Shown one piece after another: positions 1,440 to 50,906 of a stretch of 64,000 nucleotides of DNA. The notes under the pieces are model-generated. The model had not been told where the DNA came from and did no database searches. It saw nothing but the letters and a program-made list of their open reading frames with translations. Origin of the DNA: a bacterium (GTDB lineage: Bacteria; UBA8248); contig CBDBZU010000004.1 in assembly GCA_965213625.1 (NCBI GenBank), positions 2,407,356 to 2,471,355 on the forward strand. Reading direction: 5' to 3'. Positions within the stretch are counted from its first letter, which is position 1; each line of letters begins with the position of its first letter. Made by a program: the position numbers and the translations under genes.

Positions 1440-1484
1440 GCCGCCCTGCGCACACGATATTTGTAAGTGATGGAGACCGGAAAG

Positions 1485-2540
1485 ATGAAGTTTTCGCTAT
1501 TCTATATTCCTGCATGTCAGGAGGGGGAGAGCTACAAACACGAGTTCGATCAGTTGATCGAACAATGCGAGGTGGCCGACGAACTCGGCTATGAGGCCGT
1601 GTTCCTGGCCGAGCACCACTTCTCCCGCGTGGGCATGTGCCCCGACGCCCTGATGGTCGCGCTCGCCATCGCGCAGAGAACCAGGAAGATACGGATCGGC
1701 ACCGCCATCTGCATCATGCCGTTCCATAACCCGGTGCGCCTGGCCGAACAGGCCGCCCTGGTCGACGTGCTGAGCGGCGGGCGTCTGGAGCTGGGCGTCG
1801 GGCGGGGTTCCCAGCCCAAGGAGTTTCAGGGCTTCAACATCTCGCCCAGTGAGAGCAGGGAGAAGATGCAGGAGGGCCTCGAGGTGATGACCCGCCTGCT
1901 GGAGGGGGAATGCCTCACCTTCCACGGGAAGCACTACAGCTGCATCGACGCGGAGATTTTCCCGAAACCCATACAGAAGCCGCGCCCTCCCATCTGGCTG
2001 GCCGGCACGAGTCCCGAAACCTACGTCTTCGCCGGCAAGAGGGGGTACAACATCATGGCGTCGGGCACCTTTAAGGGACCCGAGGTGTTTCTGGAGAAGA
2101 TGGCGCTCTTCCAGGAAACCGTGCGCAACCGGGGCGGCGACCCGAGTGTTTATCCCTCCCTCATGGCGCACCACGTCCACGTGTGCGACGACCCCGAGCA
2201 CGCCTGGAAGCAAATCGAACCCTCGGAATCGTGGTATCTCTCCTACCGCAGCGCGGTGAATTCCATCGAGATGCCGCTTGAGGAGAAAGAGGCGCTCAAG
2301 CGCAACTGGAGCTACGACGTCGACATCCGCCAGGTTATCGAGGGGGGCGGCGTCATCGGCCCGCCGGATAAAGTGATCGCCGATCTCAAGCGGCTCCAGG
2401 CGGAGTTCCAGGTGAATCACATCATGATCTTCGTGCTGCGCGGCATCGCACAGGACGAGGCGATTCAGTCGATAGAGCGGTTTGCGAAAGAGGTGATGCC
2501 CGCGTTCGCCGAAGAGCGCGCGGCGAGTTCAAGCGAATAA
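1485..2540 (+). CDS. LLM-class flavin-dependent oxidoreductase
   Basis: ORF 1467..2540. The ATG at 1485 (MKFSLFYIP) is preceded by GGAGA at 8 nt. 'AVFLAEHHF' and 'GGRLELGVGRG' are luciferase-like motifs. Confidence 0.8.
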   Translation: MKFSLFYIPACQEGESYKHEFDQLIEQCEVADELGYEAVFLAEHHFSRVGMCPDALMVALAIAQRTRKIRIGTAICIMPFHNPVRLAEQAALVDVLSGGRLELGVGRGSQPKEFQGFNISPSESREKMQEGLEVMTRLLEGECLTFHGKHYSCIDAEIFPKPIQKPRPPIWLAGTSPETYVFAGKRGYNIMASGTFKGPEVFLEKMALFQETVRNRGGDPSVYPSLMAHHVHVCDDPEHAWKQIEPSESWYLSYRSAVNSIEMPLEEKEALKRNWSYDVDIRQVIEGGGVIGPPDKVIADLKRLQAEFQVNHIMIFVLRGIAQDEAIQSIERFAKEVMPAFAEERAASSSE

Positions 2541-2564
2541 CATCGGTATCGAGGAGAACGGAGA

Positions 2565-3164
2565 ATGTGGATATCCCCATTAAGGCTGAATGACGCGCAA
2601 GAACCCGCACGCGGCATACTCGAGGGCATCCGGGCGAAACGGGGCGCCGTGCCCAAGCTGCTGCTCACGATGGCGCGGCGCCCTAAGGTGCTGAACGGAC
2701 GCCAGACGATGAACATGGCCGTCCACGGCGGCAATTCGACGCTGGGCCAGAGGCGCGAGGAGTTGATATCCTACTATGTCGCCACCATCGGCGGTTGCTA
2801 TGGCTGAACGATGAACCATGGCCAGGCTTTCCGTGCTGAAAGCGGCGACGACGTAACGCTGGCCGACGTGGCCACCGTGGTGATGGACAGGGACAATTCC
2901 CCGGTTCTCGACGATGCGGACAAGGCGATGCTCGCCTTCGCCGAAAAACTCACGTTCGACCACTACGCCATGAGCGAGGCGGACCTGGACGAGCTGCGCG
3001 AGGTGGGCTTCAGTGATGAGAACGTGCTGGACATCATAGGCTCCGTCTCGTACCGGAACATGAGCAACCGGCTGAATCTCGCGCTCGGCCTCGATGCCGT
3101 CGAACCAGAAGGCCCAGACGAGTTGATGGAGGTAGTGCGCTTCTCCCGGACTGCGCGGGCGTAA
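2565..3164 (+). CDS. AhpD-like / carboxymuconolactone decarboxylase-family protein with in-frame TGA (probable selenocysteine) at 2805-2807
   Basis: Track ORFs 2565..2807 and 2811..3164 are in the same frame and separated only by TGA-ACG. The joined protein reads ...ATIGG-C-Y-G-[TGA]-T-M-N-H..., which is the CMD/AhpD C-x-x-C-x-x-x-H active-site spacing with TGA at the second Cys. A hairpin lies 13 nt downstream. RBS GGAGA precedes the ATG at 2565. Confidence 0.7.
2821..2846 (+). promoter_or_regulatory. candidate bacterial SECIS hairpin
   Basis: GCUUUC(2826-2831)/GAAAGC(2838-2843) form a 6-bp stem with a 6-nt loop CGUGCU that contains GU. A lower 3-bp stem GCC/GGC carries a 2-nt bulge. The apical loop starts 24 nt after the UGA. 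Confidence 0.5.
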
Positions 3165-3283
3165 AAACGTACATCCATTTGCCGGCCGAGCAAGTCCGGG
3201 CCGGTGATTATCAGGCAATTGATTGCCACCGTTGATTTGCGGCCCGAAGCGGCCGCGAAACAAAGCAGAAAGGAAGAGATTCC

Positions 3284-4054
3284 ATGTCAGAGCTCACCAT
3301 CCGTCCGCTGAACTGCGGCACCATTCACACGGATTACTCCAATATGGTGTATTGGACGAACTTCGGGACGAAACTCGAGATTCCCTCGTTCATCTACATG
3401 ATCGAGGGGGCGAAGGACCACGACGGCAAGGACGTGAAGGTCGTGGTCGACACCAGTTTCCTGGACCCCGAGCGCGGCGGCGCCCCGTGGCCCGCGAGCC
3501 GGGAACCCGGCCAGGGCGTTCGCGAGCAGTTAGAGGGCGCGGGCTGGAAGCCCGAGGATGTGGACATCCTCATCCTCACGCACCTCCATTGGGACCATTC
3601 CCAGAACTGCGACCTGTTCACCAACGCCATCAAATACGTGTGGGCGGAGGAGCTTCAATACTCCATGTGCCCGGTCGCGCTGCAGTCGAAACCATACGAC
3701 GCGCCGATCCACCCCAACACGCGCTGGCCGGTGATCGCGCAGCAGGGCATCATCTTCGAGCCGATCTGGAAGGATAATTTCGAGATCGTGCCGGGCGTCA
3801 CCTACTTCCACACGCCAGGCCACACGCCGGGGCATTGCTCGGTGGCCGTCGAGACGCGCGTGGGAACGTACGTCATCGCCGCCGACGTGATCCAGATTAA
3901 CGAAGGCCTCGAGCGCCGCGTTCCCGCCGGCCAGATGTCGAGCATGCGCGACGCGATGGACTCCATCCATAAGTGCATCGAACGGGCCACGAAGGAGGAG
4001 TACATTCTGCCCGGCCATGAGATTTCGGTGCTGGAGAAGGAAGTCTACCCGTAG
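3284..4054 (+). CDS. MBL-fold metallo-hydrolase (lactonase-like)
   Basis: 256-aa ORF with the 'THLHWDH' HxHxDH zinc motif and later 'HTPGHTPGH'. Confidence 0.8.
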   Translation: MSELTIRPLNCGTIHTDYSNMVYWTNFGTKLEIPSFIYMIEGAKDHDGKDVKVVVDTSFLDPERGGAPWPASREPGQGVREQLEGAGWKPEDVDILILTHLHWDHSQNCDLFTNAIKYVWAEELQYSMCPVALQSKPYDAPIHPNTRWPVIAQQGIIFEPIWKDNFEIVPGVTYFHTPGHTPGHCSVAVETRVGTYVIAADVIQINEGLERRVPAGQMSSMRDAMDSIHKCIERATKEEYILPGHEISVLEKEVYP

Positions 4055-4108
4055 GAAGGGAAAATCCGGGCGCGGCGGCTGCGCGCCTTTGTTCAGGGAG
4101 GATTCACG

Positions 4109-4486
4109 ATGGCGATGAGCGAGCGGGGCAGGGCCTTGTACGAGGAGATGAAGGCGGCGCGCGGGTTTATCTACCCGGCGTATGAACTCCTGTGCGAGGT
4201 GGACCCCGAGTTATTGGAGAACTACGAGAACCTCAAGAACCACATCATGAAGAAACAGGGCCCCTTTCATGAGAAATACAAGGAGCTCTTCATCGCGGTG
4301 GCGAGCGCCTCGCGCAACCCCTCCGATTTAGAGAGCATTAAGAACCACCTGAAAAAAGCGCTGCAACTCGGCGCGACCGTCGAGGAGGCGACGGAGGCCC
4401 TCGAGTGCATGCTGCCCCCCTGCGGCATGACGGCGCTCGTGGCGGGCTGCACGCAGCTCAAAGAGGTGATCGACGAGGGATATTAG
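4109..4486 (+). CDS. carboxymuconolactone decarboxylase (CMD/AhpD-like) family protein
   Basis: 125-aa all-helical ORF with a CMD-like layout ('KELFIAVASASRN', 'GATVEEATEALE'). There is no CxxC motif. Confidence 0.6.
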   Translation: MAMSERGRALYEEMKAARGFIYPAYELLCEVDPELLENYENLKNHIMKKQGPFHEKYKELFIAVASASRNPSDLESIKNHLKKALQLGATVEEATEALECMLPPCGMTALVAGCTQLKEVIDEGY

Positions 4487-4507
4487 GGCAGGACTGGAAG
4501 CATTCGA

Positions 4508-4540
4508 CCGGGGGAGCCTGAAAACTCCCCCGGGTTTTTT
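4508..4540 (+). terminator. rho-independent terminator
   Basis: CCGGGGGAG-cctgaaaa-CTCCCCCGG followed by GTTTTTT, 22 nt after the stop at 4486. Confidence 0.75.
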
Positions 4541-46282: not shown

Positions 46283-46368
46283 GCCCGGGTGGTGGAATGG
46301 TAGACACTAGGGACTTAAAATCCCTTGGCCGAGAGGCCGTGCCGGTTCGAGTCCGGCCCCGGGTACCA
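46283..46368 (+). tRNA. tRNA-Leu (anticodon UAA), CCA encoded
   Basis: Manual fold. Acceptor GCCCGGG/CCCGGGU (G1-U72), D-arm GTG/CAC, anticodon stem AGGGA/TCCCT with loop CT-TAA-AA, long variable arm GGCC-GAGA-GGCC, T-arm GCCGG-TTCGAGT-CCGGC, discriminator A and CCA. Confidence 0.9.
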
Positions 46369-49785: not shown

Positions 49786-50043
49786 ATGAGCGCCACGATT
49801 ACAGTCCGGAATATGGATGATGGGGACAAGGCTTGGGTCAGGCGTGAGGCGCGGCGTCTCGGGGTCTCGATGGAGGAGTTCGTTCGCCGTCTCATACACG
49901 AGAGACGGGAGAAGGATGAAAACCGCGCCAAGCCCTCCGAGATATTCAAGCGATATTTTGGCCCTGAATACGGCGTTGAACTGCTGCCGCGTGTCCGCTA
50001 CGGCTATCGCCCGCTCGACCTGAGCGATGGAGAGGAGGCGTGA
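49786..50043 (+). CDS. FitA/VapB-like ribbon-helix-helix antitoxin
   Basis: 'MSATITVRNMDDGDKAWVRREARRLGVSMEEFVRRLI' is Arc/RHH-type. AGGAGG lies upstream and it overlaps the PIN gene. Confidence 0.75.
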   Translation: MSATITVRNMDDGDKAWVRREARRLGVSMEEFVRRLIHERREKDENRAKPSEIFKRYFGPEYGVELLPRVRYGYRPLDLSDGEEA

Positions 50044-50489
50044 GCGGGCCTTTTGCCTATTTGCTTGACACCAACGTCGTTTCGGAAATGATGCGCCCGA
50101 ACCCGGAGCCTCGCGTTACGACGTGTATCGACGCAATTGCCGAAGAGGGAATAGCTCTCGCTTCCATCACCGTGTGGGAAATACTCGACGGCATCGGTCG
50201 TCTCCCTCCGGGCCGACGCCGCGAGGAGCTTGCCGAGCGTTTTCAAGGGGTTCTCGAAGACCTCTTCGAGGATAGCGTGCTCGATTGGGCTTTCAGCGAC
50301 GCAAAGGTCTGCGCCCGAGTGATGGAGGAAAAACGCAGGCGGGGCGAATCGCTGGACGACCACTTGCCGGATGCCATGCTCGCCGGAATGGCCCTTTCCC
50401 GAGGGCTTTCACTCATCACGCGAAACGAGAGAGATTTCCGCAATACCGGTGTTACCTTAATTGATCCATGGAAACGCGCGCGGTCTTGA
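50040..50489 (+). CDS. vapC: VapC/FitB-type PIN-domain toxin
   Basis: 'YLLDTNVVSE' provides the first acidic residue and 'ITRNERDF' is the C-terminal motif. The GTG start overlaps the antitoxin stop. Confidence 0.8.
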   Translation: MSGPFAYLLDTNVVSEMMRPNPEPRVTTCIDAIAEEGIALASITVWEILDGIGRLPPGRRREELAERFQGVLEDLFEDSVLDWAFSDAKVCARVMEEKRRRGESLDDHLPDAMLAGMALSRGLSLITRNERDFRNTGVTLIDPWKRARS

Positions 50490-50531
50490 GTCGAACGGCT
50501 TAAAATTCTGCTCAACCCGAAGGAGGGAGCC

Positions 50532-50906
50532 ATGATCTTTCAGAAGTGGGACGACATCCCTAGGATGCGCATCATCCACGAGAACATACCGGCGGAGAGC
50601 GTCATCGAACTCCAGATGATCGTGGGCGAGAAGCAGACGCTCGCGCTCTGGACGTTTTCGGAGGGTTCGGAAGTCGCCTCTCACAAACACCCCCACGAGC
50701 AGATGTCCTTCATCCAGCGGGGGCGCTTTTTGTTCCGCGTCGAGGGCGAGGAGGAGCGCGAGGTCGGCGCGGGCGAGGTGGTTGTCTGTAAATCGAACGT
50801 CGAGCACTGGCTGAAAGCGCTCGAGGACGGCTCGCAGGACCTCCAGATATTCAGCCCCCGGCGGGATGACCTGCTGGAGTTCCGCGGGGCGTATATTCCG
50901 GTGTGA
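50532..50906 (+). CDS. cupin-domain protein
   Basis: 124 aa with the 'SHKHPHEQMSFIQRG' metal motif and a second His in 'NVEHW'. Confidence 0.7.
   Translation: MIFQKWDDIPRMRIIHENIPAESVIELQMIVGEKQTLALWTFSEGSEVASHKHPHEQMSFIQRGRFLFRVEGEEEREVGAGEVVVCKSNVEHWLKALEDGSQDLQIFSPRRDDLLEFRGAYIPV

Follow-up and report, generated by a model that had tools for sequence, protein, structure and literature searches.

Positions 2565 to 3164 of the window, by which we mean the whole 64,000-nt stretch of DNA analyzed here, very probably (at roughly 92% by our own estimate) constitute one gene for an AhpD-like redox protein in which an in-frame UGA would specify an active-site selenocysteine (Sec). The unity of the gene, the position and conservation of the UGA, the presence of the Sec machinery, and the constraint on a hairpin downstream of the UGA are all observed here, and from these observations we infer Sec insertion itself. 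An earlier note on this DNA had described two open reading frames (ORFs) that share a frame and are split by TGA-ACG, and both the sequence and its read-through translation bear this out. The N-terminal ORF (2565-2807; 80 amino acids) ends in IGGCYG followed by TGA, while the C-terminal ORF (2811-3164; 117 amino acids) starts with MNHGQAF in the same frame, and the TGA together with an ACG codon is the sole separator between them. With the TGA read as U, the two ORFs become a 199-amino-acid protein with the sequence G-G-C78-Y-G-U81-T-M-N-H85. By inspection of the sequence, we identified a Shine-Dalgarno-like element upstream of the ATG at 2565 and none upstream of the ATG at 2811. The features discussed below are listed in Table 1.

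Table 1. Coordinates of the AhpD-like gene, its RNA elements, its neighbors, and related genes of the same genome (window positions unless a genome locus is given)
Feature	Position	Strand	Description
Luciferase-like monooxygenase (LLM)	1467..2540	+	Pfam PF00296, 214 bits; 24 nt upstream of the selenoprotein gene; synteny down to 60% identity
Shine-Dalgarno-like GAGGAG	2551..2556	+	8 nt 5' of ATG 2565; read from the sequence
AhpD-like selenoprotein CDS (predicted)	2565..3164	+	199 codons: ATG 2565, Sec codon 81, stop TAA 3162-3164
Glu66 codon	2760..2762	+	12 residues before Cys78; conserved acid of the AhpD proton relay; invariant column
Cys78 codon (TGC)	2796..2798	+	First position of CxxU; invariant column
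In-frame UGA, predicted Sec81	2805..2807	+	Second CxxC position; kept in all orthologs; aligned with Cys in PDB and Cys-type homologs
His85 codon	2817..2819	+	CxxUxxxH motif; invariant column
Family-type hairpin remnant	2817..2835	+	CAUGG...CCGUG, 5 bp, about -3 kcal/mol; broken in 4-5 of 16 ortholog sequences
Hairpin as first drawn	2821..2846	+	GCC-AG-GCUUUC[CGUGCU]GAAAGC-GGC: core, outer GCC/GGC helix, and AG bulge
Probable SECIS core	2826..2843	+	GCUUUC[CGUGCU]GAAAGC, 6-bp stem, 6-nt loop with G-U
Metallo-beta-lactamase-fold (MBL) protein	3284..4054	+	Downstream neighbor; Pfam PF00753; synteny kept
Small CMD-family protein	4109..4486	+	125 amino acids, without CxxC; Pfam PF02627, 36.8 bits; synteny kept
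Terminator-like hairpin and T-run	4508..4533	+	Closes the same-strand cluster
UxxU sister paralog	G000:C4:604733-605299 (locus L173 195-794; also L050-L053, L258-L275)		H-G-G-U-Y-G-U-A-M-N-H
Third AhpD-like Sec gene	G000:C4:2711678-2712121 (L164)		Motif C-F-Y-U-T; about 35 further loci, L134-L168

The joined protein scored 111.3 bits against the NCBIfam model TIGR01926 ("peroxidase-related enzyme"; cutoff, 81.8) over residues 2 to 177. Against the Pfam CMD model PF02627 (carboxymuconolactone decarboxylase family), it scored 21.5 bits, which is under the gathering threshold of 23, and it is related to this family at the superfamily level only. The best sequence matches among solved structures were 6k40 (DR1765; E = 5e-18) and 3c1l (Mlr4105; E = 1e-17), both of which align end to end. 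An AlphaFold (AF2) model built from a 13-sequence input is a single compact all-helical AhpD-like domain (pLDDT 91.6; pTM 0.85) that superimposes on 3c1l, 2prr, and 6k40 with TM scores of 0.70 to 0.83 over 184 to 189 columns. The earlier note had placed the UGA at the second Cys of the AhpD/CMD CxxCxxxH motif. The alignments agree with this placement: position 81 falls in the column of the second Cys of CxxC in the pairwise alignments with 6k40 and 3c1l as well as in the 13-sequence alignment with Cys-type homologs, and in the latter E66, C78, position 81, H85, and G86 are invariant. By the alignment, the AF2 model, and the structure matches, the protein has the AhpD fold and the Glu...CxxCxxxH relay, in which the predicted Sec replaces the second Cys. 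The active site shown by the alignment, E66...C78-Y-G-U81-x-x-x-H85, lies where a helix of the all-helical AhpD fold begins. DR1765 and Mlr4105 resemble the protein in length and in the E...CxxCxxxH site in addition to being the best sequence and fold matches (TM score, 0.71 to 0.83 for the two); they differ from it in having Cys at the second position, in sequence (27 to 33% identity), and in genomic context. Mycobacterium tuberculosis AhpD (1knc/1gu9), the relay of which consists of Glu118, Cys130, the attacking Cys133, and His137, shares the Glu-12-Cys-x-x-Cys-x-x-x-His arrangement and the all-helical fold but is a distant structural match (TM score, 0.42 to 0.48), and no ahpC gene adjoins the gene studied here.

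As the earlier note had pointed out, AhpD-like selenoproteins are a known family and not new biology, and the TIGR01926 score and the literature agree on this point. AhpD-like CxxU selenoproteins were described in 2005 from the Sargasso Sea (27 sequences, assigned to COG2128; PMC1088965), "AhpD-like 1" was among the most abundant selenoprotein families in the GOS data with 299 sequences (PMC2398784), and AhpD-like proteins are listed as a documented Sec family (PMC13188914). The 2565-3164 gene belongs to this CxxU family, which has been part of selenoproteome surveys since 2005. It shares with "AhpD-like 1" (COG2128/YciW, TIGR01926) the family model, the CxxU motif with Sec in the second position, and the marine and metagenomic distribution. 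It differs in that its ortholog clade reads C-Y-G-U where C-x-Y-U is common and in that the conserved hairpin of this clade is about 7 nt more distant from the UGA than that of most relatives sampled; otherwise, nothing essential sets it apart. Two related AhpD-fold Sec families, NF041238 (AhpD_rel_CFYUT; 25.6 bits versus a cutoff of 175) and NF053654 (YciW-related; 44.8 bits versus a cutoff of 310), do not include the joined protein, which scores far under both cutoffs.

If the UGA terminated translation, the locus would be a split gene or pseudogene, yielding an 80-residue fragment alone or together with a separate 117-residue fragment initiated at ATG 2811. That is how the gene is annotated: standard gene callers give exactly 80 and 116-117 amino acids, and public protein collections hold 117-amino-acid clusters without a Pfam call as well as adjacent called genes of 80 and 116 amino acids, as anticipated when it was first suggested that the gene would be mis-annotated as two fragments. 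The ATG one codon after the TGA would also suit two separate products. Against this, the TGA was kept in every ortholog examined (about 40 loci, with identity down to 60%). Among 60 related genomes searched, all 23 of the genus (counting the one studied here) have the gene, as do members of three other genera in the same family; identities range from 99% to 60%, and every copy has a single in-frame TGA, at codon 81. Metagenome and Logan contigs, some of them from sponges, added a further ortholog subgroup in which the TGA is likewise kept, and in about 75 other distinct CxxU relatives, which give 78 distinct sequences over a 60-nt segment, this column also reads UGA. In comparisons with three within-genus orthologs, dN/dS was 0.10 to 0.16 for codons 1 to 80 and equally low for codons 82 to 199; in comparison with a 75%-identical genus, synonymous sites are saturated and the TGA is still there. 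The codon at 2811 is ATG here and ATA, CTT, CTA, or CTC in some orthologs, so that a separate C-terminal product would lack a conserved start codon in addition to lacking a Shine-Dalgarno-like sequence. Moreover, termination would place the catalytic C78 and H85 on separate peptides, while the solved homologs are single chains of about 185 amino acids. Based on these data, we consider termination at the UGA extremely improbable and treat 2565-3164 as one gene.

The note had also implied that the organism has Sec machinery, and a search of the same genome found it. We identified a tRNA-Sec (Rfam, 75.9 bits versus a threshold of 47; called SeC with anticodon tca by ARAGORN) as well as selA, selB, and selD, which score 564, 388, and 333 bits, respectively, each over its curated cutoff. 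The selD gene (G000:C4:1518852-1519814) itself has an in-frame UGA (...KAGGUGSKLG...), which is followed by the hairpin GGGUCC-GGA-GGACCU with its loop at positions 21 to 23 (here and below, loop positions are numbered with the U of the UGA as 1). The conservation of an in-frame UGA is by itself silent on the residue inserted, and the UGA could thus in principle be read through without Sec, with Trp or Cys inserted by a near-cognate tRNA or as part of a general reassignment of UGA. However, TGA is the commonest stop in the window, where it ends 25 of the 64 coding-like ORFs of at least 200 amino acids, and 13 of 30 orthologs end with it; TGA is not generally reassigned in this lineage. In addition, the Sec pathway in the genome is complete, the position is that of a redox Cys in homologs, a conserved hairpin lies directly 3' of the UGA, and Sec is documented for the family (PMC1088965, PMC13188914). 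Read-through without Sec is therefore exceedingly unlikely in our judgment, and decoding of the UGA as Sec is the reading that we follow below. The other TGA read-through candidates of the window were rejected, since the coding-like ones were adjacent same-frame genes or lacked a domain; the candidate at 50040-50906, for instance, consists of a PIN-domain gene and a cupin gene that are adjacent and in the same frame with a TGA between them. The only tRNA gene of the window is a tRNA-Leu (anticodon taa; 46283-46368), which gives a subthreshold match to the tRNA-Sec model.

The hairpin first proposed as a selenocysteine insertion element (SECIS) starts 13 nt after the UGA and has a GU-containing 6-nt loop that begins 24 nt after it. 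Comparative data uphold this hairpin, with the refinement that its position differs from that in most of the family. The 6-bp core at 2826-2843 is intact in all 16 distinct ortholog sequences, with 95.8% of cells paired compared with about 40 to 55% in slid controls, and includes one compensatory change from G-C to A-U, which is a single inherited double change. The outer GCC/GGC helix is present in the genus and is not kept in a subgroup with H-S-Q. The synonymous stem sites 2828, 2831, and 2840 (columns 24, 27, and 36 from the UGA) and the loop U at 2834 (column 30) are invariant across orthologs, while columns 6, 9, 12, 15, 18, and 21 are all variable and the synonymous loop site 2837 (column 33) has all four bases. 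Column 24 is frozen although the codon at columns 22 to 24 encodes Ala, Asn, or Leu, and no stretch downstream of the UGA other than 2826-2843 has frozen synonymous sites. Consistently, the Arg codon in the hairpin is CGT in 29 of 29 sequences compared with 22 of the 476 Arg codons elsewhere in these genes. By single-sequence folding, the fold energy of 2800-2870 is unremarkable (z = -0.09), and support for the hairpin thus comes from the comparison between genomes and not from thermodynamics. A scan of 2600-3000 against Rfam at E <= 10 returned a chance miRNA match only and no bacterial SECIS model.

In other CxxU relatives, found in metagenomes and in the same class, a strong hairpin overlies the H-G-x-x-L-R codons (e.g., ACGGAGA-GUU-UCUCCGU, CCGGCGC-GGUCU-GCGCCGG, and CGGGC-AGGU-GCUCG). 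Among the 78 other CxxU sequences, 71 can form a stem of 6 bp or more whose loop contains G and starts at positions 19 to 25; by the same criterion, this is the case for only 23 of 95 Cys-type homologs although these are more GC rich. We used this positional count because the mean raw minimum free energies of Sec and Cys forms are alike (about -10 kcal/mol) in a comparison confounded by the higher GC content of the Cys homologs (74% versus 59%), and we note that fixed-register pair counts across paralogs are blurred by register shifts between subfamilies. In the 2826-2843 hairpin, the loop does not start until position 28. Compared with most CxxU relatives, it is displaced by about 7 nt away from the UGA, and its spacing is thus atypical relative to 71 of 78 relatives and selD. 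Accordingly, one may ask whether the gene is a selenoprotein gene in which the working SECIS is instead the family-type hairpin at 2817-2835, with the conserved TTCCGTG as its 3' arm. The CAUGG/CCGUG pairs of this hairpin are present in the genus, and its loop would lie where that of the relatives, the UxxU sister clade described below, and selD lies. However, it is only 5 bp long and weak in this sequence, its 5' arm is free to vary at synonymous sites, and the frozen block at 2826-2843 extends past its 3' end. Furthermore, in the H-S-Q subgroup the Gly codon GGC is replaced by a Ser codon (TCN or AGC), such that two of its five pairs (G16 and G17) are lost while the UGA is retained. We therefore regard the family-type hairpin as unlikely to be the working element and conclude from the sequence comparisons that the 6-bp core at 2826-2843 is the element under RNA-level selection in this ortholog group, which would place the SECIS of the clade about 7 nt further from the UGA than is the norm in the family. 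Most likely, this hairpin is the one used by SelB. It resembles the SECIS of E. coli fdhF in being located within the ORF right after the UGA and in having G-U in the apical loop, and it differs in having no sequence similarity and in the loop start at 28 compared with about 22 to 25 in fdhF.

In CxxC proteins of the AhpD type, nucleophilic attack is made by the residue at the second position, and Sec81 would therefore take that role. In the mechanism that we propose, the hairpin just downstream of codon 81 in the coding sequence, most likely that at 2826-2843, would recruit SelB with Sec-tRNA(Sec) to this codon, and the UGA would then be decoded as Sec and not as a stop. By analogy, the target of the Sec81 selenolate would be a peroxide or an oxidized partner, Cys78 would resolve the adduct as a selenenylsulfide, and a dithiol partner would re-reduce the Cys78/Sec81 pair. 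By the same analogy, the protein likely functions in the reduction of peroxides or of an oxidized partner protein.

The gene order LLM-AhpD(Sec)-MBL-CMD (window positions 1467-4540) is kept in orthologs down to 60% identity, and AhpD(Sec) may serve this conserved cluster. Based on Pfam, the immediate neighbors are the LLM, MBL-fold, and CMD genes, with no gene for an AhpC/Prx partner in the immediate cluster. A 97%-identical copy with full synteny is present on LXNJ01000466.1, from a metagenome of the sponge Petrosia ficiformis (PMC5099237), and the other contig matches are from marine metagenomes. We note that one ortholog, on the metagenome contig Ga0315336_1001008, reads G-G-F-Y-G-U, with Phe in place of the first Cys, and has an apparent frameshift near the C terminus; this copy may be a decaying gene or an assembly error.

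This genomic context, with its conserved cluster, its lack of an adjoining peroxiredoxin gene, and the syntenic copy from a sponge, would also be compatible with a protein that has the same fold and Sec site but performs other chemistry, in which the selenol acts on a small molecule, e.g., in reductive dehalogenation as in the AhpD-fold debrominase Bmp8. Indeed, the structure of this enzyme (6ohj/6ohi) clearly matches the model (E = 5.5e-7; TM score, 0.71). However, it has only 17 to 18% identity to the protein and ranks below sixteen AhpD-like chains, and the protein retains the complete E...CxxCxxxH relay found in AhpD-type reductases. In addition, the nearest characterized relative, Deinococcus radiodurans DR1765, acts in H2O2 tolerance, in that a mutant is H2O2 sensitive and complementation requires the CxxC motif (PMC8945050, citing Zhao et al. 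2020). Small-molecule chemistry is thus very unlikely compared with AhpD-type reduction. By extension, the LLM-AhpD(Sec)-MBL-CMD module of this sponge-associated lineage could be imagined as a unit for small-molecule detoxification or catabolism, in which Sec81 would make the nucleophilic attack in a reductive dehalogenation or a related reaction, comparable to those of Bmp8 and of Sec-dependent deiodinases; this idea is highly speculative.

In addition to 2565-3164, the genome contains two more AhpD-like Sec genes. The first is a sister paralog with about 46% identity to the 2565-3164 protein, in which two UGAs 9 nt apart occupy both CxxC positions (UxxU). All 24 loci read, which come from 23 genomes in three genera, retain both UGAs, while the flanking codons vary synonymously, and the second UGA is followed by the conserved hairpin CACGGRC-AGUU-G-UUCCGUG. 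This single hairpin has to serve two UGA codons, and the U-Y-G-U pair could form a diselenide. The UxxU form of the AhpD-like family does not appear in the selenoproteome review tables examined here, and this two-Sec paralog is more unusual than the 2565-3164 gene. Considering the two clades together, we give about even odds to a scenario in which the clade of 2565-3164 shifted its SECIS about 7 nt downstream, the U-Y-G-U sister clade decodes two UGAs with one hairpin, and SelB works at two spacings. With loop starts at 19 to 25 in selD and the paralogs and at 28 in the 2565-3164 gene, all in one genome, these genes offer a clean natural setting in which to study the distance that a bacterial SECIS tolerates between itself and the UGA.

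The main value of these findings lies in annotation. The 2565-3164 gene and dozens of paralogs in the lineage are stored in public databases as fragments of 80 and 116-117 amino acids that lack a domain call, and the selenoproteome and redox capacity of sponge-associated and marine bacteria are thus undercounted. Besides the UxxU paralog, the genome encodes a third AhpD-like Sec protein of the C-F-Y-U-T type, and across the whole class there are many C-x-Y-U paralogs, with up to four matches per genome. The lineage appears to be rich in AhpD-fold selenoproteins.
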